Shown one piece after another: positions 10,127-50,283 of a stretch of DNA of 64,000 nt (positions within the stretch are counted from its first letter, which is position 1; each line of letters starts with the position of its first letter). Under the pieces are notes generated by a model. The model worked only from the letters and a program-made list of their open reading frames with translations, did no database searches and was not told the DNA's origin. Both the position numbers and the translations under genes were made by a program. This DNA comes from Candidatus Adlerbacteria bacterium (lineage in GTDB: Bacteria; Patescibacteriota; Minisyncoccia; Phycocordibacterales; SBAW01), in the NCBI GenBank assembly GCA_043784925.1, contig JAYVXU010000025.1:22649-86648 (forward strand), read 5' to 3'.

Positions 10127-10444
10127 ATGTCTAATGTAATTAAAATTCTTATTGTAGTTGTTGTGCTGGCAGGCGGTGCATCGCTTGTAATGTGGAGTGG
10201 TGTGTTAAAACCAAAACCTGTAGTGTCAACTGCGCCTCCTGTGCAGCCGGTTACCGCTCCAGACCCTGCTCCCGCACCTCAGCCAGAAATGAATATGAAT
10301 GGTATGGCCGCCGCTAATGACGCTAATGACGCTGCTCTTGTTCAAGATATGGCTGCTATCGATACGCAAATACAAGGTTTAACTACTGACTCAGCTTCAG
10401 TAGATTCGAGCCTCAATGATAAATCTATGGCTCAAGCATACTAA
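10127..10444 (+). CDS. Small membrane-anchored Pro/Ala-rich protein, hypothetical
   Basis: 105 aa with an N-terminal TM and a PAPAPQP-rich linker. Confidence 0.4.
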   Translation: MSNVIKILIVVVVLAGGASLVMWSGVLKPKPVVSTAPPVQPVTAPDPAPAPQPEMNMNGMAAANDANDAALVQDMAAIDTQIQGLTTDSASVDSSLNDKSMAQAY

Positions 10445-12772: not shown

Positions 12773-13681
12773 ATGTTGTTTTCTACATTTTCGCGTAAGG
12801 CTGTTTTTACCCTCGTACTCGCTCTCGCCGCTCTCCCCGTGCTTTCGTATGCTCAAAATTACAACTGCACGTACCCCTTTTATAATGGTACTGGCACCTG
12901 TGCCCAGCCTGGAATGCTACACGTCTATGTGGTTACTCTCCCTACTAGCAACCAGCCATCTCGCGTACCTGCAGACTTCACTGTGGTAGTGCATGCTCAG
13001 AGTGTGCCCCAGCAAACATTTGCGGGTTCACAAAGCGGCACCACCGTCACCCTCCAAGGTGCATATACTGTCGAAGTGCTTCCTATGCAAAATTACACCC
13101 AAACGTATTCTCGAGGTTGTACGGGGACCATATACTCACAAGAAGAAACATGTGTTATCACTATGAGCCCGAACTATGCGTATAGCGTGCCGGTGACACC
13201 TTACCAGTATCCATACCCTTACGCGCAAAATGTCTTAACCTGTGCGCCAGCGTACCAAACAGTGAGTCTTGGACAGAGTGTACACTTTACTGCAATCGGA
13301 GGCACGAACCCTTATACATGGTCTACGGGTCACTCTACATACCAAGCGATTGGCCCTGTCTTTAACACCGTACTTCAAAACTCTGGAGAGCAAACTGTCA
13401 GTGTCTCGAACGGAACACAAACAGCGGTATGTACTGTCAACGTAGTGGGCGGACATGGACCTGTGATGCCTCCACCTACAACTATTTCAACTATTTCAAA
13501 CACCACCATTGTAGGCCCTGCAACTTTTACTGCGCAATATGTGCCAGCACCAAGGCTTCCTAACACAGGATTTGGCCCAGCATCACTTGTTCAGTGGATA
13601 TTTGCTGTATTGGCACTAGCAGGTGTTGGTGTCCTCATAACTCCGTATGTTAGAAAATCGTTCGTATCCATTGCGCAATAA
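12773..13681 (+). CDS. LPXTG (LPNTG) cell-wall-anchored surface protein
   Basis: N-terminal signal peptide. The C-terminus has LPNTG, then a hydrophobic stretch (WIFAVLALAGVGVLI) and a positively charged tail (RKS), the canonical sortase sorting signal. Confidence 0.8.
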   Translation: MLFSTFSRKAVFTLVLALAALPVLSYAQNYNCTYPFYNGTGTCAQPGMLHVYVVTLPTSNQPSRVPADFTVVVHAQSVPQQTFAGSQSGTTVTLQGAYTVEVLPMQNYTQTYSRGCTGTIYSQEETCVITMSPNYAYSVPVTPYQYPYPYAQNVLTCAPAYQTVSLGQSVHFTAIGGTNPYTWSTGHSTYQAIGPVFNTVLQNSGEQTVSVSNGTQTAVCTVNVVGGHGPVMPPPTTISTISNTTIVGPATFTAQYVPAPRLPNTGFGPASLVQWIFAVLALAGVGVLITPYVRKSFVSIAQ

Positions 13682-14857: not shown

Positions 14858-15802
14858 ATGCTCCTTAAAAAAGCGGCACGTCCCCACCTAGACTTTTTTA
14901 AAAATTTTGCTTTGCATCGTATGCCGCTTATTAAAGAAATTAAAAAATATTATACGGAGCATGGTCGCAGTCATTTGCCATGGCGGCAGACTCACGACCC
15001 TTACAAAGTTTTGGTGTCTGAAGTAATGCTCCAACAGACGCAAGTTGACAGGGTGCTTCCCAAATACGAAGTTTTCATAAAAAAGTTTCCCACAGCTACT
15101 GCACTTTCAAAAGCAAATCTTCACGACGTTCTCGCCCTTTGGAGCGGGCTTGGCTACAATCGGCGCGCAAAATTTTTGCATGAGGCAGCAAAAGTTGTGG
15201 TTGTAAAATATAAAGGAAAATTCCCTAAAGATGTTTTTGTACTAGAAAGTTTGCCCGGTGTAGGGCCATACACTGCAAGAGCAATCGCTGCCTTTGCCTA
15301 TAACCAGCCTGTGGTATTTATTGAAACAAATATACGCACTGTCTTTATGTATTTTAGTATTTTACAAAATAACAAAATAGAAAATAAATCTTTTTCTATG
15401 AAAAGTATTAAAAATAATTCTGAAAAAATTTCAGACACAGAATTGTTGCCACTCATAAAGTATGCACTCACTCGCTCAAAAATGCAGCCGAGAGATTTTT
15501 ATGCTGCACTTATGGACTATGGCTCCTACCTTAAGCAATCGGGGGTACGCCTGAACAGTAAAAGTAAACACTATACAAAGCAGCCAAAATTCAAAGGCTC
15601 GGCAAGGCAACTTCGCGGAGAAATCGTCCGGCAACTGCTCGTCACTTCTTTAACGAAGCAGAAACTTATTAGTGCTACCGCTCACGCTCTTAGAATAGAA
15701 GTCAATGAAATTGAAAATAGTCGAATTGAAAAAGAAATACTTGTGCTGCTCAAAGAAAATCTGATAGAGAAAAAAGCAAAAAAATTTGAAATTAAAAAAT
15801 AA
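14858..15802 (+). CDS. HhH-GPD base-excision DNA glycosylase (MutY/Nth family) lacking Fe-S cluster motif
   Basis: LPWRQTHDPYKVLVSEVMLQQTQVDRV and the GLGYNRRAKFL HhH-GPD motif. No Cx6Cx2Cx5C cluster. Lys-rich C-terminal tail. Confidence 0.7.
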   Translation: MLLKKAARPHLDFFKNFALHRMPLIKEIKKYYTEHGRSHLPWRQTHDPYKVLVSEVMLQQTQVDRVLPKYEVFIKKFPTATALSKANLHDVLALWSGLGYNRRAKFLHEAAKVVVVKYKGKFPKDVFVLESLPGVGPYTARAIAAFAYNQPVVFIETNIRTVFMYFSILQNNKIENKSFSMKSIKNNSEKISDTELLPLIKYALTRSKMQPRDFYAALMDYGSYLKQSGVRLNSKSKHYTKQPKFKGSARQLRGEIVRQLLVTSLTKQKLISATAHALRIEVNEIENSRIEKEILVLLKENLIEKKAKKFEIKK

Positions 15803-27514: not shown

Positions 27515-27801
27515 AAATTGAGTATTCTCTAAAATATTCGAATGATTTAGAGAATATTCTTGAGCGAAGTACCCAATATGGAGCACGAGTTACACGCGAA
27601 TTAACGAACTATATCTATTTAGAAATTGAAAGAATCGCCTCTTTTCCGGAGAGTGCTAAAACTTTGTCAAATAGAGAGGGTGTCCGAGTTCTGTTTCTTG
27701 TCCGATTTCCATTCGCAATATTTTATAAAGTATTCCCTGATAGGATTTATATTCAACATATTCAACACACCGCCCGCCTACCTTGGCGGGAGGTCAAATA
27801 A
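27511..27801 (+). CDS. RelE/ParE-family toxin
   Basis: 96 aa. The C-terminal FYKVFPDRIYIQHIQHTAR matches the ParE/RelE pattern (Y.v....i.I.rI.H..R). Confidence 0.6.
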   Translation: MKIEYSLKYSNDLENILERSTQYGARVTRELTNYIYLEIERIASFPESAKTLSNREGVRVLFLVRFPFAIFYKVFPDRIYIQHIQHTARLPWREVK

Positions 27802-31950: not shown

Positions 31951-34326
31951 ATGAGTGAACATCAACCCCTTAGGGATAGAAGAGATAGAAGAGATAGAAG
32001 GAATGATGAATCCTCAATCCCTAAACATACACAAACTCTATCTACCCCTGTAGCTAGTGAGGGAGAGAGGAATGCCCCTAATAGAGAAGGTCGAGAAAGT
32101 GAGGAAGCAAACTCATCTTCTCCCAAACATGATACATTTAGTTGGAGTGAAGAATTGGGTACTAGGTTAAATAGTGAGGGTTTTTCTCAAGAGGAAATAT
32201 CTTTTATTCAAGGAGCAATGGTTGGGAAGAAGACCTCTAAAAAACATTTATTGAGTGTCATTGCTCTTAGTAAGGGGTTGTCTGATTTATCCGAAGAAGG
32301 AAAAGAAATGCGTAGGGAAGTGGTAGTTGAACCTGATTTTGAGTTAGAAAATTTTGCAACAATTAAAAAATTTGAGTCAATTCTTAACACCACTTCACAA
32401 GTTGCGTCTGCACCTGAACCGCCGGACCTTGCAAGAAGTGTGCCTTTTGAACCCACTGCGGCTCCTGCTGTTGCAGTGTCCTTGCCGCCAGACAACTTTC
32501 CTATTTCGAACGAGGTTCTTCATGAAGTAGCAAAAAAAATTGTTGAGCAAGAAAGAAAAGGTACAGCACAACCTAAGACTCAGACTGCTCCAGCTACGCC
32601 AGAAGTTACAAAAGATACTATTGAAATTTCTCCCGAGAGTTTAGGCTTAAGTTCAAAAATGTCCTTTATTGATGGCCCAACCTCCTCTGCGCAGGTTGAG
32701 TCGGAAATGCCTCCGGTCGAGCTAGTTGAACCACCTCACCCTGAGTTTGTTTTGAATTTAAAAAAATCAGGGCAATGGCAGACCCTGCCCTCAGGGATAA
32801 CGTCTTTAACCGATGTACAAATTCCAGAAAATACCCAAAACGTAACGTACCGCGCAGGCCCAGAAGGTGTATTGCAGGTTAAATGGACACGCGTACCACC
32901 AGAGAAATCTTCTTCAAAAAAGCCTTCCAAATCTAAAAAGGAAGAATCTGTTTCTCCAGGACCCATAAAGGTAAATTCTGAAGTATCTCCGGTAGAGCAA
33001 GGGGAAAGTGGTTCCACAACTCCAGAAGTAGCTCCAGCAACCCAACCTGTTACTAAACCCATTGCGGAGGTTAATCCAATTACAGGTCAAGAGAAGATGA
33101 GGAAAGAATTTAAAAACCACTTTGGGGAAGATACTTTTGTTACGGCAGACCCTAAAGCTGTAGACTCAAATATTGAAAAAAATACCAAAGAGTGGCGAGA
33201 ACATTTTGGAGAAGATGTTTTTGTTGAAGCTGATGCACCCGAAGCTTCGGTAGAGGCTAAAATAATTCCCCCATGGTATAGCAAATTTCCTAATTGGGTT
33301 AAGGATCAAAAGGAAAATATAAATCAAGAAGCACTTACAAGAGGAGGTGAGAGGGGCGTGAATGCTGTGCGAAAAACAGGGGAGTGGTACAAAAAACAAA
33401 ACCCCTGGATAAAAGTTGGGGTAGGAGGAGCTTTGATAGGACTTGGGCTTGGGGGAGGAGCGATTGGTGGAAGTCTCGGAGGCACAATATTTGCAATCGG
33501 TTTTACAGGTAAAGTTGTACAAAGGGGCTTGGCTGCTTCAGGAGCTTTTGTTCTTGCAGAAAGTATGTCGCGAGGATTAAGTAAAGATAAACAGCTTGAT
33601 AAAGTTTTTCTCAAAGATAAACATACACAACGTGGGCTGGCTGCGGCGGTACTCACCCTTGCTATGCCCTCAATATTTTCCTACACCGGAGCAGGAACAA
33701 TTGTGGGCCAAAAACTATCACTTGCTGGTAGTTGGTTATCAACCAATTTTGTATCTGCAACTAGATTTATAGGAGAATCCCAATTAGCAGGTGCATATCC
33801 GGCTGGTGTAGCGGTAGCACCTGTGGGCTTAACTCAGGTCGATTTATCCGATCCTGTTCAAACCGAGAAATTTACTGCACGGGCTAAAGGTCCAATACCC
33901 CACCTTACTCCTCCAAACCCTGCACCTGGAGTACCTATCACCCCATCCGCACCACCCAACGTTTCGGGCAGAATATTAGATACGCTTCAAGGAGCAAAAG
34001 TTACAAGTGGAAGCAATTTATGGAACACAATCTCAGGTACTCTTCCTTCTGAGCTTAATACGGCGCAACGTCAAAATGCGGTAGGGAATATCATACAGTG
34101 GCTTCGTGATAACCCGAACGCGCATAAAGATATACCTAACCTAACCAAAGTTATAGTTGGTACTCCACTCAGTAGTCTCCAGATTCCTCCGGAAGTTCTT
34201 CAAAACATTTATGATCATGCAAAAAATCCTCAAGTAAAATTAGGTACACTTTCCCTCGGGCCAGAAGCAACGCCAAAAACTACTTTAAAAGAAACTTTAG
34301 AGCAAGTAGCTAAAGAGCAGCATTAA
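31951..34326 (+). CDS. Large bitopic/polytopic protein with RDRRD repeat N-terminus, internal duplicated motif and Gly-rich TM block
   Basis: 791 aa. N-terminus RDRRDRRDRRNDE. Duplicated EFKNHFGEDTFVTADPKA / EWREHFGEDVFVEADAPEA. Central GVGGALIGLGLGGGAIGGSLGGTIFAIGFTG TM region. Pro-rich C-terminal domain. In operon with the ATPase. Confidence 0.55.
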   Translation: MSEHQPLRDRRDRRDRRNDESSIPKHTQTLSTPVASEGERNAPNREGRESEEANSSSPKHDTFSWSEELGTRLNSEGFSQEEISFIQGAMVGKKTSKKHLLSVIALSKGLSDLSEEGKEMRREVVVEPDFELENFATIKKFESILNTTSQVASAPEPPDLARSVPFEPTAAPAVAVSLPPDNFPISNEVLHEVAKKIVEQERKGTAQPKTQTAPATPEVTKDTIEISPESLGLSSKMSFIDGPTSSAQVESEMPPVELVEPPHPEFVLNLKKSGQWQTLPSGITSLTDVQIPENTQNVTYRAGPEGVLQVKWTRVPPEKSSSKKPSKSKKEESVSPGPIKVNSEVSPVEQGESGSTTPEVAPATQPVTKPIAEVNPITGQEKMRKEFKNHFGEDTFVTADPKAVDSNIEKNTKEWREHFGEDVFVEADAPEASVEAKIIPPWYSKFPNWVKDQKENINQEALTRGGERGVNAVRKTGEWYKKQNPWIKVGVGGALIGLGLGGGAIGGSLGGTIFAIGFTGKVVQRGLAASGAFVLAESMSRGLSKDKQLDKVFLKDKHTQRGLAAAVLTLAMPSIFSYTGAGTIVGQKLSLAGSWLSTNFVSATRFIGESQLAGAYPAGVAVAPVGLTQVDLSDPVQTEKFTARAKGPIPHLTPPNPAPGVPITPSAPPNVSGRILDTLQGAKVTSGSNLWNTISGTLPSELNTAQRQNAVGNIIQWLRDNPNAHKDIPNLTKVIVGTPLSSLQIPPEVLQNIYDHAKNPQVKLGTLSLGPEATPKTTLKETLEQVAKEQH

Positions 34327-39518: not shown

Positions 39519-41090
39519 ATGAGCCCGTACGAAGAAAAAGACTACATACACATGAAAAAGGATTTCCTTAAGACAGATGCTCCAAAAGCATTACTTATTT
39601 TCAATGCATTTTTTGCAGGGTTGTATTTTGTGATGATCACTTTCTTTTTTACGGTGGATAATAAAATCCTTTTTTATCTTCTTGTAGCGGGGGAAGTGTT
39701 TCACCTTTGGCAAGTATTTACTTTCCTTTACACCATTTGGGACACTTCGTACGTGTCTCCAAAAACAACACGTACCAGGCCGGGGGTCGACGTGTTCATT
39801 ACCGTAGCGGGGGAGCCGGTCGAGTTAGTTGAAAAAACAATTACGGCAGCTCAAGCCATGAACTATCCAGATTTTGAAATTCATATTCTCAATGATGGTT
39901 TTGTAGCAAATCGTGATAATTGGCGAGACATTGAGGCTCTTTCCTCGCGCCTTGGGGTGCATTGTATTACCCGCACGATCCCCGGAGGTGCAAAGGCGGG
40001 GAACATTAACAATGCTTTGAAGTTGACTGAGCGTCCTTTGGTTGCTATTTTTGACGCCGACCATGTGCCACATTCTGATTTCTTAACAAAAACAGCTGCA
40101 TACTTTACCGACGCAAAGGTTGGGTTTGTGCAGACCCCACAGTTTTACAAAAACTATGCAGAAAATTATTTAACGCGTAGCTCCTGGGAACAACAAGAGC
40201 TCTTCTTTGGGCCTATATGTAAAGGAAAAAATAGACTCAATAGTGCAACTATGTGCGGCACTAATATGCTTATTTCTCGCACGGCCCTTGAGGTTGTCGG
40301 AGGCATGTATACTGAGTCGATTGCAGAAGATTTTGTGACGGGGCTTATAATGCACTCTCGGGGGTATCGCTCTGTATACCATGGCGAAGTACTTGCAGAA
40401 GGCCTTGCCACTGAGGATCTTCTTTCCTACTCAAAACAACAATTTAGATGGGCACGTGGGGCTTTGGATGTTATCTTTCGCTTTAATCCATTCTTTATGC
40501 GGGGCCTGACGTTTGCGCAAAGAATCCAGTACATTTCTTCAGCAAGTTTCTATCTGTCAGGAATTTTCGTCGTGATAGATGCACTCCTTCCCATCGTCTA
40601 CTTCTTTACGGGTCAGGTTGCGGTCCATTTAAACAGCATGTTGCTTGCGACCATATTCTTGCCATACTTCTTCTTGACTATGTATGTGATCCAACGCTCT
40701 TCAAACTTTACCTTTACCTTTCCGAGCCTCGGATTTTCCATGGGTGGATTTAATATCCATCTTCGCGCCTTGTACTCGGCGGTAACATTCCAAAAAGCAG
40801 CATTTTCTATTACTCAAAAATATAAAGAAGAAGGGAACTTCCTCCCCTTGGTGAAGTGGCATATAGCCTACATTGTGCTTGTGGTTGTTGGAGTTGGGGT
40901 TGCGTTTGTCCGCGAAGGTTTGTCTGCATCGCTTATAAATAACGCTGCGTGGGGATTGCTCAATAGTATTGTCCTCATACCGTTCATTAAGGCCGCACTT
41001 CCTGACCGCGCAGATTCTCCAGCTTTAGCTATGCCCAAACCACACCTGCAGCTTCGAAAGAAAAAAATATATGGCACAACTGAGAACTAA
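39519..41090 (+). CDS. Cellulose-synthase-like GT2 processive glycosyltransferase (no PilZ domain)
   Basis: DAD/DxD motifs (IFDADHVP), QQFRWARG = QxxRW, multiple TM flanking. C-terminus lacks RxxxR/DxSxxG PilZ motifs. Confidence 0.75.
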   Translation: MSPYEEKDYIHMKKDFLKTDAPKALLIFNAFFAGLYFVMITFFFTVDNKILFYLLVAGEVFHLWQVFTFLYTIWDTSYVSPKTTRTRPGVDVFITVAGEPVELVEKTITAAQAMNYPDFEIHILNDGFVANRDNWRDIEALSSRLGVHCITRTIPGGAKAGNINNALKLTERPLVAIFDADHVPHSDFLTKTAAYFTDAKVGFVQTPQFYKNYAENYLTRSSWEQQELFFGPICKGKNRLNSATMCGTNMLISRTALEVVGGMYTESIAEDFVTGLIMHSRGYRSVYHGEVLAEGLATEDLLSYSKQQFRWARGALDVIFRFNPFFMRGLTFAQRIQYISSASFYLSGIFVVIDALLPIVYFFTGQVAVHLNSMLLATIFLPYFFLTMYVIQRSSNFTFTFPSLGFSMGGFNIHLRALYSAVTFQKAAFSITQKYKEEGNFLPLVKWHIAYIVLVVVGVGVAFVREGLSASLINNAAWGLLNSIVLIPFIKAALPDRADSPALAMPKPHLQLRKKKIYGTTEN

Positions 41091-42594
41091 AACAATCGCG
41101 CTACTACTCACTATGATGAGTGTGCCCATACTTCTGTCGTACTTTTTCTTCATGAGTCAAAGTTTACGACTCGATGAGTCGCAAAGTTTGTGGCAAACCA
41201 GTCGAAACGTACTTGATATATTTTCCATTGTAGCAGGTGACGTCCATGTTCCTCTGTTCCACATATTGCTCCATTTTTGGATTCTTCTCTTTGGAGAAAC
41301 AGTGCAAATTGCTCGAGGTATGTCGCTTTTCTTCTTCCTTTTGAGTATCCCCGCGCTGTATGTGCTCGGGAAGTACGCCTATGACCGAACGGTCGGACTT
41401 TTTGCTGCGCTCCTTTTTTCTATTTCTCCATTCATGAATTGGTATGGAAATGAGATACGAATGTACACCTTGTTTACTTTTTGTGTGATTTTAAATCATT
41501 TCTTTTTTCTGCATATTTTTAAAGCAAATCTATCTAAAGTCACACCGCAAAATCGAAAAATCAAAGATAGTATGTGGGTCGGCTATACCCTCACTGCAGT
41601 TGTCGGTGTTTTTTCGCACTACTTCTTCTTCCTTATTTTGGCGTCGCAGCTTGTATTTTATTTTTTGCGTCGAGACTTGTTTTCGTCAGGCACTCTACAG
41701 AGGTTGGGAGTGGCAGCAGCCGTAGTGCTCGGCACCATTGCTCCTTGGGGTTGGTACGTGCTCCATAAAGGCCAGGCAGCTTTTCAAGAACCAACACTTG
41801 GCACACCAACAACGGTTAACTTGTTTAGTTCAGTTGCTCAATTTATGTTTGGTTTCCAAAGTGACAAGATAAACACTTTCTTCCTTTCTCTCTGGCCCGT
41901 GAGTGTGATCTTTGGTCTGTTTGCTTTACGGCGAGGTCAAAAAATGCAGCCAGAGACCGAATATTTTCTGGTGGCCGTTGTGGTACCTTTTTTCCTCGCT
42001 TTCTTTGGAAGTTTTATACTGGCTCCTATCTTTGTGAGCCGCTATTTAATATTTACCGTACCACCATTGTACCTCCTTATCTCAAAGGTCTGTAGTAATT
42101 ATTCTCCACGGATGGCCACGACACTTCGGTATGTGCTTGTTGGGGTCATGATATGTACTTTGCTTATTGAAATCGCAAATTCGCAAGCTCCCGTTAAAGA
42201 GAATTATAAAGATGCTGCGCAATATTTAACAACACACGCAACAGTGCAAGATGTGATTGTGTTGTCGGCCCCTTTTACCATATATCCTATTCAATATTAT
42301 TATCGCGGTGCGGTACCGGTGAAGACATTGCCTGAATGGAATCAGTATGCGTACGGACCTATACCATCGTTTAATGAGTCGACTCTTCCCGCGCAAGCAA
42401 CAGAGGTTGCTGACAAAAGTCAAAATCTGTACCTACTTCTCAGCTATGACCAAGGATACGAAAATAAAATTCGCGTGTATTTCGACACACATTACCAGCG
42501 TACTGACCAAAAGAACTTTTCTAATGGGTTAAATCTGTATGTGTATCGTTTGCGGTATGACACCGGTTTGTCGGCCATAAGTTCCAATAAATAA
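41071..42594 (+). CDS. GT-C fold glycosyltransferase (GT39/PMT_2, ArnT-like)
   Basis: 507 aa, polytopic. Early motif YVLGKYAYDRTVGLFAALLFSISPFMNWYG typical of the PMT_2 family. Overlaps the upstream gene by 20 nt. Confidence 0.6.
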   Translation: MAQLRTKTIALLLTMMSVPILLSYFFFMSQSLRLDESQSLWQTSRNVLDIFSIVAGDVHVPLFHILLHFWILLFGETVQIARGMSLFFFLLSIPALYVLGKYAYDRTVGLFAALLFSISPFMNWYGNEIRMYTLFTFCVILNHFFFLHIFKANLSKVTPQNRKIKDSMWVGYTLTAVVGVFSHYFFFLILASQLVFYFLRRDLFSSGTLQRLGVAAAVVLGTIAPWGWYVLHKGQAAFQEPTLGTPTTVNLFSSVAQFMFGFQSDKINTFFLSLWPVSVIFGLFALRRGQKMQPETEYFLVAVVVPFFLAFFGSFILAPIFVSRYLIFTVPPLYLLISKVCSNYSPRMATTLRYVLVGVMICTLLIEIANSQAPVKENYKDAAQYLTTHATVQDVIVLSAPFTIYPIQYYYRGAVPVKTLPEWNQYAYGPIPSFNESTLPAQATEVADKSQNLYLLLSYDQGYENKIRVYFDTHYQRTDQKNFSNGLNLYVYRLRYDTGLSAISSNK

Positions 42595-42605
42595 AAAAGC
42601 AGGTG

Positions 42606-43364
42606 CTACTCCTCCTGTGTAAGAGTCAAAAGGGAAGCAGCGCTCCATGCTTGCACGCAACATGCTCCTTGACCACATAGGTCAGGGCTTAAGAGTCGTT
42701 TAACAACATGAGGAATGTATTCGGTTTTGAGTATGCAGTCAAGTGAGCCGTCCTGAGCTTTTGTTGTAGCAAAAAAACAATGTCCCATACTTGACCGAGC
42801 GGAGGTAAGTGGACGGCCCGTACCATCGAGTGCAAACGCTAATGATATAGGTCCAGCGCCGTGCAATATAAACGACTGATTGAACCTCTCTTTAAGCGCC
42901 ATTGCTTCCTGTATGAGCTCCTGACCACGCGTAGTATCAGAATGTAGAATAATTAGATACCCCATGCGTGTAAAGCTGCGTACGCGTACCCTCGGGCCTC
43001 TACTGGGGCTATTGGATATTGTGGTCGTTCGTCATAATTTTCAAAAAATACTGATTCTGTTGAATCCATCCAACTTTGCGTGCGAAGTACACCCAAATGT
43101 ACGTTTTGGGTCGTACGCGAGCCCTAAGTTGAGTAATGTCCAATAATTAACTCCATACAGATCTTTCACACGCGCTTCACGAAGTGCGCGAGGGTAGACA
43201 GATTCAAGCCGGGACGAGCTCATAGAGTCGCCAGATGCAAAAAGGGTTACCTCGTGCGCTCGTCGTACTAGCTCTTCTGTAAGTCCATATACAACTCTTT
43301 CAGTACCACCATATTTTTTAGGTGGTACGCGCTCCGCTATGGGAGCGATCTGTGCAGATTTTCA
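42606..43364 (-). pseudogene. Degraded GT4 glycosyltransferase (frameshifts plus internal deletions)
   Basis: Minus-strand translation shows MKI then a +1 shift into APIAERVPPKKYGGTERVVYGLTEELVRRAHEVTLFASGDS (GT4 N-terminal domain), stops, and a C-terminal piece with the GT4 EAMA motif (GQELIQEAMALKE). Total under 760 nt against about 1.1 kb for an intact GT4. Confidence 0.5.
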
Positions 43365-44564
43365 TTACCGCTCTACAATGTCGTAGTCAGATGAATGCTT
43401 TATGAAGACTAAATCGACATAGAGGATGCCGATGGCTATAAGCATCATAACGCTAGGGATCCTCAAATCCGGATGTAGGCCTGCGAACCAAGATACTTGA
43501 GATAAATAGGGCATGTATGCCACTAATGAAGCGCCAACAATAAATACGGGTATAAACCAGCGAGATGGTCTATAGAAGACATATATAACGGAAAAGAGAT
43601 CTGCTAAATAAAAATATCGCTCATGCATGCGAGGAAGTAAGTAAGGGAGTACTGCCACACAGAGGGTGGAAATAAGCACGAGAGTCGGCACATTCATTTC
43701 TTTTTTCAGATATACATATACGGTAATAATCAGAGCACAGAGGATAGCCACAACAAGACCAGCGGCAAATAAAGTTTGCTCAGAAAGGCCAAAAATATCG
43801 GCATGTAGTATCGCAAATATATTTTGAGCCGAGACACTAAGAGATGTGTACTCACTGGACTGGCGAGCGTACACCAGCAAAAGGTCGCCCAGTGACCCGC
43901 CGCCAAGCCGGGCGGGGATTATGGATAGAAAATAAATGCAAGGAATAGCTAGTAAATATCCAGCACTACTTTCTTTTCGCAAACAATAGCCAATGAGCAC
44001 GGGTAAGAAAAATATTGCTTGTAACTTGCAAGAAAGAGCAACAGACAAACTGACCACGGCCGAAAGGGGCATGTCGCGAATAATAAAGTAGAGGCAAAGT
44101 ACTACCCCGGCCGCATATATAGAGTCAGACTGTCCCCAAGTGGCACCGTTAAGCACCAGGGTCGGAATAGAAAACATTACCGCAAATATAAAAAATAATT
44201 TTTCTTTGGGGTAGTTTTCTTTCGTGGTGTATTTAATCAGTCTATAAGTTATGTATGCGATGAGGACGTCAAACAAGACGGACATGGTTTTAGTGCTGTA
44301 GAGGCTGGATACGGGAATAAAGGTGAGGAGTTTGAGAAGATATAAGTAGAGTGGAGCATAATCAGAAAAACGCTGGGTAAATGCAGTAAGTCCTGGGTGC
44401 TCTTGGAGTACGACAAACCACTTGCTTACAAAGTAAATGTAATCCGAGGTCTGAATAGGGTAGGAGATTAACCTAAAAAGTACTGACAGTATAAGTAGTG
44501 CACTTCCACCAAAGTAGCCCGTCCATATGGAAGGGCTACTGCGAGGCGTTGTCCCCAATAGCAT
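43365..44564 (-). CDS. Polytopic membrane protein, GT-C-like (DUF2029/mannosyltransferase-like), hypothetical
   Basis: 399 aa, about 10 TM helices, within a glycosyltransferase cluster. Confidence 0.4.
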   Translation of the reverse strand: MLLGTTPRSSPSIWTGYFGGSALLILSVLFRLISYPIQTSDYIYFVSKWFVVLQEHPGLTAFTQRFSDYAPLYLYLLKLLTFIPVSSLYSTKTMSVLFDVLIAYITYRLIKYTTKENYPKEKLFFIFAVMFSIPTLVLNGATWGQSDSIYAAGVVLCLYFIIRDMPLSAVVSLSVALSCKLQAIFFLPVLIGYCLRKESSAGYLLAIPCIYFLSIIPARLGGGSLGDLLLVYARQSSEYTSLSVSAQNIFAILHADIFGLSEQTLFAAGLVVAILCALIITVYVYLKKEMNVPTLVLISTLCVAVLPYLLPRMHERYFYLADLFSVIYVFYRPSRWFIPVFIVGASLVAYMPYLSQVSWFAGLHPDLRIPSVMMLIAIGILYVDLVFIKHSSDYDIVER

Positions 44565-44613
44565 GTCTCTACTGTAACATCTATTCTAGAACTTTCAAGT
44601 GACAGGACCGGTA

Positions 44614-45990
44614 CTAGTGCTGAGCGTTTTGTACTAATTTCACTGCGTAATCAGGCCACCAAGTACCTGCACCTGGGCCACCGTTACAATACCCGTCACT
44701 TTCTCCTGGGACTTTAAGCCATAAGTAGGCGTCTATAAGCGGGTTCCCACTTGCCGATGTGGGGGTGGGCCCAATAGCGCTTCCTGTTGGGTTACACCAC
44801 TGCCCATTACTTCCAGCGCCATTGCGAGAAGTATCAATGATAAAATGTTTCCCCCCAACTTTCTGACTCACGTCACCCCCGTACTGAGCTTCGTTGTTGG
44901 TTGAAATAAAGTTTGAAACATTGACGGCAAAACCGTCTGCATTTTTTATGCCTGCATCATTTAGTCTTTGGCCCATAACTCCTGCTTCTATCCAGTTAGA
45001 ATGTCCGGCATCAATGTAAACTTTGGTATTAGCATTCCTTTTGAGAATAGAAGTTGCTTGTGAGATGAGGGATAAACGGGTTGACTGGTCGTTTGATGAT
45101 AAGCATCCCATCTGAGACAAAGCGTCAGGTTCAAGTATAACTATCGCTTTTCCTGAGCCAATGCCCTGGGCCAAGTTGGTAATCCAGTTTATATACCCGT
45201 CTGGGTTGTTTGAGCCACCACTTGAGTAACCTCCACAGTCGCGCTGAGGGATATTATAGGCCACCAGAAGGGCTGCAGTATTTTGATTTGTAGCTGCTGA
45301 CACTAAAGCGCGAACATCGTTTTGAACATTACTGTTCCAATCTCCAAACCATTTTGCCGTTGGTTGTGTAGCGAGCAAGTTCATGGCTGAAGAACCGGTG
45401 GGGTAATTTTGCCAAACGCTTTTTTGTTGGGCAGCTTTTGAATTTGGGTCTACGTATAATTTAATATCTTGAACGGGGTTTTGAGTTATATTCGGTGTAG
45501 GCAGGGGAGAGGGCGCAGGAGTTGGCGCAAGTTGGGGCGCAGGAGCCGGAGTAAAACTTGCAGTACTTACGGGGTCGATGTACACCGCAACTGATTGCTG
45601 TCCTATTATCACACCATTTTTTCGCGCAATAAAGTTAATGCTGTATGGACCATTGCCGTGCCAATTCCACGCGGTCACATCAACGGAGGCTTCTTTGTGT
45701 GGGTAACCGACGGAAGAGGTGTCCATAACATTCCACTTTCCTCCGTCAACTTCCCAGAGCATGTCATATTGAGATGCGTCTAGCCCAGTGACGACGGCTT
45801 TAAAAGGCTGCACTCCTTGCAAGTGAGCACCACTGGTTGGCCACCATACTTCGATAGGCATAGATGCTGCGTGTGCTGATAGAGGAATTGCACTAGTAAA
45901 GATAAAACTAAAAATTGTTACTACTGATAAAATTACATTACTAATTATTTTTTTACTATATGGATTTATTTTTTCAATCATCATTGTCAC
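44614..45990 (-). CDS. Secreted glycoside hydrolase family 6 (cellulase) with N-terminal beta-rich domain and Pro-rich linker
   Basis: GH6 signature 1 VAYNIPQRDCGG (V.Y..P.RDC) and signature 2 VILEPDALSQ (EPD[SA]L). PAPAPQLAPTPAPSPLPTP linker. N-terminal TM/signal. Confidence 0.8.
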   Translation of the reverse strand: MTMMIEKINPYSKKIISNVILSVVTIFSFIFTSAIPLSAHAASMPIEVWWPTSGAHLQGVQPFKAVVTGLDASQYDMLWEVDGGKWNVMDTSSVGYPHKEASVDVTAWNWHGNGPYSINFIARKNGVIIGQQSVAVYIDPVSTASFTPAPAPQLAPTPAPSPLPTPNITQNPVQDIKLYVDPNSKAAQQKSVWQNYPTGSSAMNLLATQPTAKWFGDWNSNVQNDVRALVSAATNQNTAALLVAYNIPQRDCGGYSSGGSNNPDGYINWITNLAQGIGSGKAIVILEPDALSQMGCLSSNDQSTRLSLISQATSILKRNANTKVYIDAGHSNWIEAGVMGQRLNDAGIKNADGFAVNVSNFISTNNEAQYGGDVSQKVGGKHFIIDTSRNGAGSNGQWCNPTGSAIGPTPTSASGNPLIDAYLWLKVPGESDGYCNGGPGAGTWWPDYAVKLVQNAQH

Positions 45991-46179
45991 TACAAAGTGT
46001 AGCGTTGATGAAAGATTGACAGCAATAGAATTTGTATCCTCAGATGAAGATTTGATTAAAAAGCTTTATATAGAGCCTCAGGATATCTTCATAAATGAAG
46101 CTGAAGAACACATTTGTCTGAATTTTGTCTTTTTTCACATCAGATTCAGGTACTTTTGCGATAGTAACTGAAGTCTGCA

Positions 46180-46223
46180 GAACGACTTAAGAACGACTTA
46201 AAAGAGATACCAAAGAGATACCA
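46180..46223. repeat. Two pairs of perfect 11-bp tandem direct repeats (GAACGACTTAA x2, AAGAGATACCA x2)
   Basis: Read directly: 46180-46190 = 46191-46201, and 46202-46212 = 46213-46223. Helical-turn periodicity. Located between the HK/RR operon 3' end and the GH6 gene upstream region. Confidence 0.8.
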
Positions 46224-46266
46224 ATTAATTTATTTTTTACACATTTAGCTCAACTCGTTACACTAT

Positions 46267-47337
46267 TTAGAAATACCCTCCTTTTTTATATTGAGAAAAA
46301 TCCATAGTAATTTCATTTTCACGTTGTTCTTGAGCTTCAGCTGGGGAAGGAGCGATTGTATAGCGAGCAGGTTTGGAAGGAAAATGCACTAAAACAGTAG
46401 TGCCTTGATTAGCAACACTTTTGATAGTTATTTTCCCTCTATGTACGCGCACTAACTCGCTTGCGATAGTAAGTCCTAACCCACTACCCGTTTTAAGCAC
46501 TGTTCTGTCGCGCGAAGTGTCCACTCTATAAAAAGGGTCAAATATGTGCGCAAGATCTTTGGGTGCAATACCAATACCACGGTCTGCTACTGAAAAAACT
46601 ATAGTGCCTCTGTGGTCGGGTTTGACGGACACCACAACCGTTATGCCGCGTCCCTGGGGGGTGTAGCTAATGGCATTTTTTATAATGTTTGTCATTATCT
46701 GCTCGAGCGCAGTTGCATTGCCCCATACAATCCGTGACTTATGTTTCTCGAGCGTGAGGTATACCTCCCTTTCTTTCGCAAAGTCAGAAAGATGATCGGC
46801 TACCTGGTCGAGCAAGGGACCCAAATCAATTTTGGAAAATTCAATTCTCTCAGGACGAGTCAAGGCGTTAAGTGAAAGAAGATTGTTTATTATGTCCGAG
46901 ATTCGCTCGAGTTCGCGCAATACTTCGCTATGCACTTCAAGAGTAGATTCAGGGAGTGTGTCGTCCAGAAGCGCTACTTCAGTCGAGGTCTTAATGGTGG
47001 ACAAGGGGGTACGAAGTTCGTGAGCAATGTTACTGATAAATAATTTTTGATAGTAAAGTATTTCTCGAACCGGTTTAAGAGCAATAGCAGCAAACAGAAG
47101 GGTGCACCCAACAGCACCTATTAGTAGGGCTGCAAAAGCAAAGGCGCTATAGTGCGGCAACCGGGTACTTACAAGGAATGCAAAAAGGCACGTGCTTGCA
47201 AATCCAATTGAAAGAGCACTTAGATTTAAGATAGTGCGGAAAAAGAGATCATTCTTGTACCTCCCCCGTAAGCCGATACCCGACTCCGCGTACTGTCTCA
47301 AAAAGTCTCGCACTGTCTTGTCCTGTATCTGAGCCAT
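46267..47337 (-). CDS. Sensor histidine kinase
   Basis: Two N-terminal TM, H-box AHELRTPL, HATPase_c motifs (GLGLTIASELV). Overlaps the RR gene 3' end by 89 nt. Alternative GTG/TTG starts also overlap. Confidence 0.85.
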   Translation of the reverse strand: MAQIQDKTVRDFLRQYAESGIGLRGRYKNDLFFRTILNLSALSIGFASTCLFAFLVSTRLPHYSAFAFAALLIGAVGCTLLFAAIALKPVREILYYQKLFISNIAHELRTPLSTIKTSTEVALLDDTLPESTLEVHSEVLRELERISDIINNLLSLNALTRPERIEFSKIDLGPLLDQVADHLSDFAKEREVYLTLEKHKSRIVWGNATALEQIMTNIIKNAISYTPQGRGITVVVSVKPDHRGTIVFSVADRGIGIAPKDLAHIFDPFYRVDTSRDRTVLKTGSGLGLTIASELVRVHRGKITIKSVANQGTTVLVHFPSKPARYTIAPSPAEAQEQRENEITMDFSQYKKGGYF

Positions 47338-47950
47338 GTTCTAATTTTTTTCGTAAGTTTTTCATATGAACATCAAGCACGTTGCTCCACGAGAGGGAAT
47401 TGAAATCCCATACATGGTCAAACAAAAATTCTCGTGAAAGTACTTTGTTTGGCTCGCGCATAAAACACTCAAGAAGTGCGAATTCTTTAAGGGTCAACGA
47501 CACTTCAGCCCCGTCTTGTCGTACAACTCGGGTGCCGGTATCCATCTCGAGTGGCCCTACTTTAATAACTACAGACTTGGTGAGTGCAGGCCTTCGAAGT
47601 ACTGAATTCATGCGAGCAAGCAATTCTCCAAAAGAGAAAGGTTTGACGATATAGTCGTCGGCACCTTTATTGAGTAGGTCTATTTTGTGTTCGGTTTCGT
47701 TGCGCGCCGTCAAAATAATAATAGGGGTGGTAACATTTTCGCTTCGCACTTTTTCGGTAATCATTTCACCTCCAATACCAGGTAGCATAAGATCAAGGAT
47801 AATAAGGTCGTACTCGTCTCGGTAGAGTAAAATTCGGCTCAACGCTTTTTCGCTGTCAGACAACCAGTCTACAGCGTAGCCTTTCATTTCAAGGCCTTTT
47901 TTGAGAGCCTTTGCAAGCTTCTCTTCGTCTTCAACTATAAGTAGATGCAT
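47249..47950 (-). CDS. OmpR-family response regulator
   Basis: Receiver domain (LIVEDEEKLAKAL...DLMLPG) plus winged-helix C-terminal domain (VWDFN...RLTGEV). Confidence 0.85.
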   Translation of the reverse strand: MHLLIVEDEEKLAKALKKGLEMKGYAVDWLSDSEKALSRILLYRDEYDLIILDLMLPGIGGEMITEKVRSENVTTPIIILTARNETEHKIDLLNKGADDYIVKPFSFGELLARMNSVLRRPALTKSVVIKVGPLEMDTGTRVVRQDGAEVSLTLKEFALLECFMREPNKVLSREFLFDHVWDFNSLSWSNVLDVHMKNLRKKLEHGSDTGQDSARLFETVRGVGYRLTGEVQE

Positions 47951-47986: not shown

Positions 47987-48139
47987 CTACGCAATAGGAT
48001 TTTTTCCTTGAATAAGTCGCAAAAGCACCATAATAATTGCTATTACAAGCAGGATATGGATGAGGGAGCCCACAACGTGGAACGCCACTACTCCCAGGAG
48101 CCACAAGATCACAAGAATAGCTGCTATCGTGTACAACAT
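47987..48139 (-). CDS. Lmo0937-family small membrane protein (50 aa)
   Basis: MLYTIAAILVILWLLGVVAFHVVGSLIHILLVIAIIMVLLRLIQGKNPIA matches the conserved about 50-aa two-TM family. Below the ORF-track length cutoff. Confidence 0.6.
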   Translation of the reverse strand: MLYTIAAILVILWLLGVVAFHVVGSLIHILLVIAIIMVLLRLIQGKNPIA

Positions 48140-48228
48140 AATTTTGAGTTTAGTTAATAATACACTCTATTATCTTCATAAACCACATGTGGGAAACATG
48201 AAGAAACCAGATAAGGTTAAAAAAACCC

Positions 48229-50283
48229 TTATTTTTCAACGTATTGTTGAGTTGTGGGATGCAAATGTAGAGATCCCTCCGAACCATTAATTGTTACTGT
48301 TGTGCCGGGTTTATAAGGAGTGTTTGAATGGTCTATGACGACCGGTATTTGGTATTCCCGCGCCACAATTGCCAAATGTGAAAGTATTCCTCCTTCGCGG
48401 GAAATAATCCCGGCAATGGTGCCCATGTATTGAGTCAGTTCAGGGACAAGGCGATCAACAAGTAAAATGCTCCCAGGAATGATTGGGCCAGACAGGTCGC
48501 ATATAAATCCTGTCGCCACACCCGTAGACACTCCAATGACTGCTGTGTTTTGTGGTTCTAACACACTCGCTATTACTGAAGGCAATATGTACCGTGACTC
48601 TGCTTCAAATTTTTTCTTGCGAGCCTCAAGTTGTGCGCTATCAAATTGCATATTTTTTATTTCATCTAAATGTAGGAAATATACAAGTGAAAGGTCAGCA
48701 AGCTTGCCCTCTATATGTTTTATTAATGCTTTTCGCAGTCCGTTCATTGCTAGAACGCTGAGCCGCCGCCCTTCTTCTCGAAGTTCTGCATATTCTTGCG
48801 CCATAACAACAGTAGGTTGCAGCTTTTCCTTTATTGCTGGAAGAAGAGTTGACCATATCTCAATTTCAGTATGGGTTTTGCTTGTAGACGAGATGCTATT
48901 GGCAGTAAAAGGGGACTCGTCTCCTATGTTTATAGAATTACCTAGTAAAGTTGAAAATACTTCTATTAATGAGGGATCAAGTGGATAGGATTTGTTCAGA
49001 GGAAGGGAAATAAATTCAGAAGATGTTCCTATTGAAGAGGTTAGAGCCTCCATAATTTTAAGTGCTTTATCCGCAAGCACGTTCACCATAAAAACTTGCT
49101 CATATATTTGGTCAAAACGAACGAGCCATAGAGCCCACCCTTTCTCTCCTTTGAGTTCTTCTACAAGTTCTTTCATACTTGCCCGCAACTGTGCACGAAG
49201 TGCAGCAGGCGGTTGTAGAGGTAGTTTTTTGAATCGTTGGATATTTTTATGGCTGGTCCAAATGCCGCTTAATTGTCCTACGTGAGGGGTAAGTGTTTTT
49301 CCTCCAAAATAGGAATAGGCAGGAAAAAATTGTTTGATCTCTTTTTCTTTATCTATATAGGGGTGTGAGACAAACTCACGAAATATGGTATCTGCTTTAA
49401 ATTCTATCTGTAAGGATTTGTATACTCTCCCAATCGCCCCCTGTTGTGTATGGAGTAACTGTAAAATTTCATAGGAAAGCGGTGTGGATTGTACGAACGC
49501 TTCGCTCAAGGTTGTTTGGTCAAAATAATATGGCGGGTCTTTTACTTCTTGCTCAATGAAGCAGTATCCTTCATACCGCTCGCGCGACACGGTGGTTACC
49601 GGGCGAGTTTGGACAATGTATAATTTGTGATCTGACGCGAGCACCCACTCTATATCTTGAGGGAAGTTATATTTTTTTTCGATTTGCTCGGCCGCGACTG
49701 TTAGTCGCTGTAAACCAGGAAATAATTCTTTTATGATGGGGGAATTGTGTACCATTGAAACTCTTTCAACTGGACCGCCACCTACCACTTTATTTTCTGT
49801 ACCTTTCGTCCACTCCACAATCATTTCCCGTCCAACAATTGGATTTCGAGTAAACACCACGCCTGCGTATTCGGGTTCAATATATTTTTGGATAATAATT
49901 GAAAATGGTTTTGTGTCAGTTGCTGAGCCTTTGATTTGCGCATCATGAATAACTTCCATGATCGCGGTGCCAATTTCCGAGGCCTTAATATTGAGGAGGC
50001 TTTTAAATTGTCCCGCTTGTGAGTGGGTAGCCTGGTCCTCACTGAGAGCTGCAGAACGCACAGCAAATCTCATCGTGTTGAGCGACTCTGCTTCTTTTGT
50101 GACGTTGATAAGAATTAGCTCTGCTCCTTCAGAGTCCTTACCCATTTGTTCGACTACAGCCGCACGAATAACAACAAAGGGTGGGACGGTAAACCCGGCT
50201 TGAATAAGCTCAGCCAAACGCACTGCTTTTGCTCCTATCCCAGTTGCGTTCCTTAGTATCTCCTCACTACTAGTTGTCACCAT
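48229..50283 (-). CDS. PEP-synthase/rifampicin-phosphotransferase-like protein (PPDK_N ATP-grasp domain plus C-terminal PEP-utilizer swivel domain)
   Basis: The N-terminal about 240 aa match the pyruvate phosphate dikinase AMP/ATP-binding domain. The C-terminus GGILSHLAIVAREYQIPVV has the phospho-His mobile domain. No PEP/pyruvate-binding TIM barrel. Confidence 0.7.
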   Translation of the reverse strand: MVTTSSEEILRNATGIGAKAVRLAELIQAGFTVPPFVVIRAAVVEQMGKDSEGAELILINVTKEAESLNTMRFAVRSAALSEDQATHSQAGQFKSLLNIKASEIGTAIMEVIHDAQIKGSATDTKPFSIIIQKYIEPEYAGVVFTRNPIVGREMIVEWTKGTENKVVGGGPVERVSMVHNSPIIKELFPGLQRLTVAAEQIEKKYNFPQDIEWVLASDHKLYIVQTRPVTTVSRERYEGYCFIEQEVKDPPYYFDQTTLSEAFVQSTPLSYEILQLLHTQQGAIGRVYKSLQIEFKADTIFREFVSHPYIDKEKEIKQFFPAYSYFGGKTLTPHVGQLSGIWTSHKNIQRFKKLPLQPPAALRAQLRASMKELVEELKGEKGWALWLVRFDQIYEQVFMVNVLADKALKIMEALTSSIGTSSEFISLPLNKSYPLDPSLIEVFSTLLGNSINIGDESPFTANSISSTSKTHTEIEIWSTLLPAIKEKLQPTVVMAQEYAELREEGRRLSVLAMNGLRKALIKHIEGKLADLSLVYFLHLDEIKNMQFDSAQLEARKKKFEAESRYILPSVIASVLEPQNTAVIGVSTGVATGFICDLSGPIIPGSILLVDRLVPELTQYMGTIAGIISREGGILSHLAIVAREYQIPVVIDHSNTPYKPGTTVTINGSEGSLHLHPTTQQYVEK

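Follow-up and report, generated by a model that had tools for sequence, protein, structure and literature searches.

The 44 bp at positions 46180-46223 of the window, by which we mean the whole stretch of 64,000 nucleotides analysed here, are two unrelated 11-mers, each doubled, without one motif common to the four units. With moderate confidence, they may be read as a pair of recent tandem micro-duplications; the spacer around them would be fast-evolving and unconstrained, and has probably lost two genes with respect to a syntenic relative. The repeats are perfect, unique and non-conserved and do not match the DNA box of the adjacent regulator's family, and we infer that they arose by slippage and are neutral. 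An earlier note on this DNA had proposed them as a binding site of the adjacent OmpR-type regulator, a role that found no support in the tests made here; its fallback suggestion, a small duplication-prone element, is the reading preferred here.

The repeats lie between a two-component system and a GH6 gene on the minus strand, as the earlier note had placed them and as Pfam domains and coordinates confirm. The nearby genes, all of which are encoded on the minus strand, are the following:

48229-50283, minus strand: PEP-utilising-enzyme-like gene
47987-48139, minus strand: open reading frame (ORF) for a 50-aa lmo0937-family small membrane protein (NCBIfam NF033488, E 1e-16)
47249-47950, minus strand: OmpR/PhoB-family response regulator (Response_reg and Trans_reg_C domains)
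46267-47337, minus strand: histidine kinase (HisKA and HATPase_c domains)
44614-45984, minus strand: GH6 glycoside hydrolase with a signal peptide (Pfam PF01341, E 4e-60)
43365-44564, minus strand: GT87-like gene

The lmo0937-family ORF, which ends 36 nt ahead of the regulator gene, probably opens the two-component operon. The GH6 coding sequence starts with an ATG at 45984 or 45981, the latter being the start of the database gene call. The spacer between kinase and GH6 measures 276 bp, with about 30% G+C, and the repeats are found 43 nt past the kinase stop codon (46267-46269) and about 200-240 nt ahead of the GH6 start, their near edge being 196-199 nt from the ATG. GH6 is also part of a glycan-synthesis-like cluster (39519-45984) that includes a GT2/cellulose-synthase-like gene (39519-41090), a PMT_2 gene (41071-42594) and the GT87-like gene (43365-44564), and that is also found in a relative (L081-L083, see below); the setting is a hint that GH6 may process glucan of the cell itself, as opposed to degrading external cellulose. 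A GT4 glycosyltransferase pseudogene remnant occupies 42600-43365 in fragmented form, its initial ORF stopping after 15 codons and a 33-aa fragment (43224-43322) matching Pfam Glyco_transf_4 (E 3e-6).

On the plus strand, the 44 bp read GAACGACTTAA GAACGACTTAA AAGAGATACCA AAGAGATACCA, and both pairs are perfect:

46180-46190: repeat A, copy 1, GAACGACTTAA (TTAAGTCGTTC on the minus strand)
46191-46201: repeat A, copy 2, same as copy 1; the A pair reads TTTAAG-N5-CTTAAG on the minus strand
46202-46212: repeat B, copy 1, AAGAGATACCA (TGGTATCTCTT on the minus strand)
46213-46223: repeat B, copy 2, same as copy 1

The perfect 11-bp repeats in a 2+2 arrangement, already described in the earlier note, are confirmed by the sequence and by Tandem Repeats Finder, which returned period-11 perfect arrays at 46179-46201 and 46201-46224. 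They are not a product of chance, as two perfect tandems with units of at least 11 bp were observed versus 0.03 in first-order Markov (dinucleotide-frequency) randomizations of the window. The further claim of four units spaced by a helical turn holds for the 11-bp spacing but not for the units as a set: A and B are identical at 4/11 positions, that is, unrelated, and the spacing is an automatic consequence of the duplication of an 11-bp unit. For the same reason, the direct spacing of 10-11 bp between like half-sites comes trivially with each pair, being that of a duplicated 11-mer. Within each pair identity is 11/11, including positions that an OmpR-type protein would not contact. Other copies upstream of genes, for which the earlier note had suggested a search, were absent: neither 11-mer recurs with up to one mismatch near other genes of the 64-kb window, and across 1.83 Mb of related loci there is no excess of A, B, AA, BB or AB. 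An exact search of JGI metagenomes with the A-B junction 22-mer gave no match. A rotated form of the A unit (GTTCTTAAG) resembles both GTTCTTCAG of the conserved block described below and a segment of the kinase coding sequence, similarities that were set aside as chance-level, partly on the basis of our own estimate.

The mutational background of the region is consistent with a micro-duplication. Indeed, the window holds six perfect tandem duplications with units of at least 9 bp versus 0.39 expected (a 15-fold excess over its first-order Markov randomizations), and the related loci (1.83 Mb) hold six perfect 11-bp tandem duplications, so that duplications of 11 bp belong to the normal sequence turnover here. 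Four of those in the window are 9-bp duplications (10312-10333, 13479-13499, 27749-27767 and 31975-32000), three in-frame in ORFs and one intergenic, and the only non-triplet duplications with units of at least 9 bp are the two in the kinase-GH6 spacer. The repeats thus share with slippage micro-duplications the perfect head-to-tail copies, a junction microhomology of only 1-2 nt for each duplication, a non-triplet unit at a non-coding site, the lack of conservation, and a window with an excess of other perfect tandem duplications. They differ in that two different units of equal length abut (AABB), which independent slippage does not predict; an adjacent pair of different duplicated units of at least 10 bp is absent from the 1.83 Mb of related loci.

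Two tandem arrangements are of note. One of the six perfect 11-bp duplications of the related loci, in another Parcubacterium (L026 6974-6995, AATAATGAACA twice), lies across the GH6 start codon and creates a 3-codon mini-ORF before the real GH6 start. In the window, a second AABB-like pair is found at 15349-15379, where 8-bp units (GTATTTTA twice, then ACAAAATA twice) form halves that are near reverse complements, inside ORF 14858-15802 and within an apparent low-complexity insertion.

According to the preferred reading, the adjacent 11-bp segments A and B would have been duplicated, presumably in recent times, either independently or in a coupled manner, turning AB into AABB. Replication slippage or misaligned repair synthesis would be the most likely origin, because the microhomology at the junctions is so short, and the duplications may have persisted because nothing constrains the sequence of the spacer and an insertion of 11 bp, not being a multiple of three, is tolerable at a non-coding site. 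The exact abutting of two different 11-bp duplications weighs against this reading, as it would be very unlikely if they were independent, and a coupled mechanism or selection is possible; our guesses for the former are several slippage events during a single passage of replication, or staggered-nick repair occurring more than once. The equal unit lengths and the exact abutting, together with the gene loss in the surrounding region, could also be taken as what was left behind when a mobile element with 11-bp target-site duplications inserted and excised twice. We regard this as extremely improbable, since no transposase or terminal inverted repeats are found nearby and the excision of bacterial insertion sequences with both target copies intact is atypical.

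Comparison with relatives shows how little of the spacer is maintained. Homologues of GH6 and of the kinase are overwhelmingly found in metagenome-assembled genomes of Patescibacteria/Parcubacteria (Paceibacterota, Adlerbacteria, Kaiserbacteria), the proteins of the nearest relatives being only 55-62% identical. The best of 80 GH6 loci from GTDB genomes reach 57-61% amino-acid identity, with no close relative among them, and a homologue of the regulator-kinase pair is present within 5 kb of GH6 in a single one (L029), where the pair does not adjoin GH6. The shared arrangement is found only in the relative L081-L083 (regulator 84%, kinase 57% and GH6 57% identical), in the order regulator, kinase, an ORF of 66-71 aa, a 688-aa MASE1 hybrid kinase, GH6, GT87-like, PMT_2 and GT2/cellulose-synthase-like. 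In particular, the small Cys-containing ORF and the hybrid histidine kinase (L083 1277-3718) occupy the position that the repeats have in the window; both genes are missing from the window spacer and from the rest of the 64 kb, and blastn, tblastx and tblastn detected no remnants of either in the spacer, where only the GH6-proximal part matches L083. The spacer can thus be divided as follows:

46126-46266, minus strand: non-conserved, AT-rich part holding the repeats
45990-46120, minus strand: conserved GH6-upstream block of about 130 nt, common to six other Parcubacteria GH6 loci

The comparison with orthologous intergenic regions called for by the earlier note went against its proposal, as no counterpart of the repeats exists in L083 or in the five other aligned GH6 upstream regions. 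The block that is conserved in six other loci leaves the repeats out, and the neighbourhood shows gene decay, the GT4 pseudogene being an example; both observations favour the micro-duplication reading.

The conserved block adjoining GH6 is DNA that looks regulatory for this gene. It is found in L083 (3729-3856), L001 (6044-6168), L002 (707-823), L003 (1464-1592), L007 (65-194) and L025 (9565-9685), the last five aligned by a profile built from the window and L083 blocks, with nhmmer E values from 1e-7 to 1e-27. Across these seven Parcubacteria, window included, the GH6 proteins downstream of the block are only 48-61% identical to that of the window. The block is non-coding because indels break the reading frame, and no Rfam match with E up to 1 was obtained over 45800-46450. 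Two potential coding sequences were discarded on account of the frame-breaking indels that relatives carry in the block: an ORF of 51 aa on the plus strand (46016-46171), whose end falls 9 nt short of the repeats, and the leader peptide MCSSASFMKIS on the minus strand. Two conserved elements are promoter-like:

46020-46025, minus strand: conserved -35-like TTGCTG, part of the consensus TTGCnGTCAA (46016-46025 in the window)
45996-46001, minus strand: conserved -10-like TACACT, consensus TACAnT, 11 nt before the first ATG

Across loci, TACAnT is found 18 nt beyond TTGCnGTCAA and 7-11 nt ahead of the start codon, and this pair suggests a promoter with a very short leader, giving a near-leaderless mRNA, with a predicted GH6 transcription start near 45988-45990. 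Further upstream, the block has conserved TGAA/TTCA elements, including TTTCAG-N5-CTTCAT. The tandem repeats fall upstream of the block and outside it, at about -191 to -234 relative to the start that the conserved -10-like TACACT would predict.

The specificity of the regulator can be approached through its family. A scan of JGI metagenomes retrieved 80 loci with regulator orthologues (61-84% identity), and in none of them (0/80) was GH6 present within 6 kb of the orthologue; the regulator thus belongs to a two-component system that is widespread in Parcubacteria and is not dedicated to GH6. Upstream of 62/72 orthologues the box cTTCATgAAnnnTTCAkGTA is conserved, the fraction referring to non-redundant loci in which the best match of the whole locus falls within the 200 nt ahead of the regulator gene. 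The box, cTTCATgAAnnnTTCA(G/T)GTA, consists of two TTCA half-sites that are 11 bp apart, and in the orthologous loci (L084-L163) it lies 40-100 nt upstream of the regulator gene, with a -10-like nATACT or TATAGT following about 10 nt downstream. Its geometry is that of a classic autoregulated promoter of the OmpR/PhoB type, and it is probably an autoregulatory operator, although binding by the regulator itself is assumed from sequence. It resembles the HssR direct repeat GTTCATATT-N2-GTTCATATT. Transfer of the box to the regulator of the window is justified because conservation of the DNA-recognition helix (WSNVLDVHMKNLRKKL) reaches at least 90% across 81 orthologues.

A position weight matrix of the box was scanned over the window (about 128,000 positions), with the following sites of interest:

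43388-43407, minus strand: rank 1, CTTCATAAAGCATTCATCTG, 15.9 bits, just upstream of the GT4 pseudogene remnant and overlapping the 3' end of the GT87-like gene
46076-46095, plus strand: rank 2, CCTCAGGATATCTTCATAAA, 10.0 bits, within the conserved GH6 block and overlapping the 12-mer TTTATGAAGATA
46041-46060, minus strand: rank 12, TTTAATCAAATCTTCATCTG, 5.8 bits, in the GH6 block, centred near -61, its position kept in relatives
48184-48203, minus strand: rank 15, CTTCATGTTTCCCACATGTG, 5.2 bits, a degenerate box

The last of these stands 9 nt upstream of a -10-like GATAAT (48169-48174), ahead of the lmo0937-regulator-kinase operon. The box-like sites of the block recur at equal positions in relatives and score better than dinucleotide shuffles of the block (p about 0.01-0.02), and such sites show a 4-5-fold enrichment (P about 3e-4 to 2e-3) upstream of GH6 genes in Parcubacteria, between -300 and -25, which composition may confound. 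Box-like sites over the GH6 start codons of relatives were left out of this test, as ATGAA is the reverse complement of TTCAT. The exact 12-mer TTTATGAAGATA has just two occurrences in the 64 kb, both of them minus-strand: one belongs to the GH6 block (46084-46095), the other to the promoter region of the two-component system (48171-48182). It was rejected as a regulator box, since at the latter site it covers the promoter's spacer and -10. The two corresponding regions of the relative have CTTCATGAAAA in common.

The repeats do not belong with these sites. The matrix gives them -3.8 bits (A) and -13.8 bits (B), with ranks above 420 in the window, versus a median of 23.8 bits for the upstream regions of the 72 orthologues that served to derive the box, and repeat A has an A in place of the C of TTCA, which hardly varies in the box. 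Repeats and box are both direct repeats of 11-bp period at one locus, but the box is placed about 10 nt upstream of a -10 element and the repeats about 200 nt from one; at about -190 to -235 from the promoter-like element, they are also far from the -35 to -100, approximately, at which an operator would be expected. Moreover, they are missing in a relative whose regulator is 84% identical, have no second copy upstream of the regulator's own operon, and the regulator family is in general unlinked to GH6. On the other side are the 11-bp unit spacing, the site between the two-component genes and GH6, a faint echo of TTCA in the minus-strand series TTCT/TTCT/TTCA (46193, 46182 and 46172, 11 and 10 bp apart), and the box-like sites of the GH6-proximal block, from which the regulator may act on the GH6 promoter. 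All considered, we deem it decidedly unlikely that the adjacent OmpR-type regulator binds the repeats as a distal site and controls GH6 through them. As for the broader claim that the regulator controls GH6, the repeats and the orthologous loci devoid of GH6 do not sustain it, but the box-like TTCA half-sites in the conserved block do, and control of GH6 by the adjacent two-component system via this block instead of the repeats is plausible from sequence comparison.

The A pair deserves separate consideration, as on the minus strand, which is the gene-sense strand, it reads TTTAAG-TCGTT-CTTAAG and fits the CiaR box, whose consensus is NTTAAG-N5-TTTAAG (PMC3091779). The one deviation concerns base 1 of the second hexamer, which has been described as variable (PMC3091779). 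The A pair, and perhaps B, could thus be an operator of another OmpR-family regulator with a CiaR/PmrA-like specificity (TTAAG hexamers 11 bp apart), a fit that also counts against the micro-duplication reading. We find this unlikely; such an operator would work either on GH6, from a large upstream distance, or on a promoter within the spacer that has gone unrecognised. In CiaR promoters, the -10 element follows the second hexamer by 10 nt (PMC3091779), but at this distance from the A pair the sequence is GACTTC, which is no -10, and the nearest -10-like hexamer downstream, TACTAT (46161-46166), which would favour the proposal, comes 19 nt after the second hexamer. With 10 matches in the window versus 8.2 expected, the pattern TTAAG-N6-TTAAG shows no enrichment, the recognition helix of the adjacent regulator (NVLDVHMKNLRKKL) is different from that of CiaR (VVEVYVSKVRKKL), and the 64-kb window has no second OmpR-type regulator. 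Thus, the repeats share with CiaR-type operators the 11-bp period and the hexamers of the A pair and differ in lacking a -10 at 10 nt, other copies and conservation in relatives, in being identical even at spacer positions, and in that B is unrelated to A and has no known counterpart.

A variant of the operator idea is that AABB is a newborn pair of response-regulator operators, in which the tandem duplication of a single half-site over one helical turn would at once create a correctly phased direct repeat for an OmpR-family dimer, the A pair being a CiaR-type box. We consider it quite improbable, and the same holds for its extension, according to which GH6 would have been rewired in a reduced Parcubacteria genome after the loss of the intervening hybrid kinase.

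Each pair can also form a small RNA hairpin, which counts against the micro-duplication reading as well. The minus-strand RNA of the B pair folds as GGUAUC-UCUUU-GGUAUC, a 6-bp hairpin (-4.7 kcal/mol) followed by UCUUUU, and that of the A pair as UUAAG-UCGUU-CUUAA. Placed where the kinase transcript has its 3' end, the B hairpin and its U-rich tail could stabilise this RNA or serve as a weak intrinsic terminator, shielding GH6 from read-through, a proposal that gains from the UCUUUU tail, from the folding of the A pair and from the lack of any other terminator-like site between kinase and GH6. A small hairpin with a U-rich run 50-70 nt past a stop codon is indeed what the repeats have in common with intrinsic (Rho-independent) terminators. 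The difference lies in the stem, which is weak, two of its six pairs being G-U and two G-C, and which fails a consensus scan: the scan of the spacer for terminators and promoters returned nothing relevant, and the repeats do not contain the stable G+C-rich hairpin with a U tract that characterises an intrinsic terminator. The B hairpin has a z of -2.0, with 9/200 shuffles folding as well, and the 156-nt region folds no better than shuffles (z -0.89) on either strand. Given stems so weak, and with no scan flag, Rfam match or conservation, a terminator function is improbable.

The repeats could instead be a copy-number-variable (contingency-type) spacer, or a helically phased array of A/T tracts, that tunes the distance or the curvature of the GH6 promoter. 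Slippage is easy between two perfect copies, the helical phase is preserved with a unit of 11 bp, and A/T-rich segments recur every 11 bp at 46187-46240. Still, each unit has just two copies, the array is far from the promoter-like element, and the JGI metagenome search, in which data were very sparse, returned no variant allele; we hold this to be very unlikely.

As read here, that is, as micro-duplications, the repeats would be an ordinary mutational footprint and would matter little, while if they bound a regulator they would represent the birth of an operator by duplication of a helical turn. More useful are the inferred box cTTCATgAAnnnTTCAkGTA of a regulator that is 61-84% conserved across many Parcubacteria and the conserved promoter-proximal block of Parcubacteria GH6 genes. 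Literature searches returned nothing on regulator motifs of Patescibacteria or on GH6 regulation, and the cis-regulatory DNA of uncultivated, reduced genomes is almost uncharacterised; box and block may thus provide directly testable targets in these organisms.
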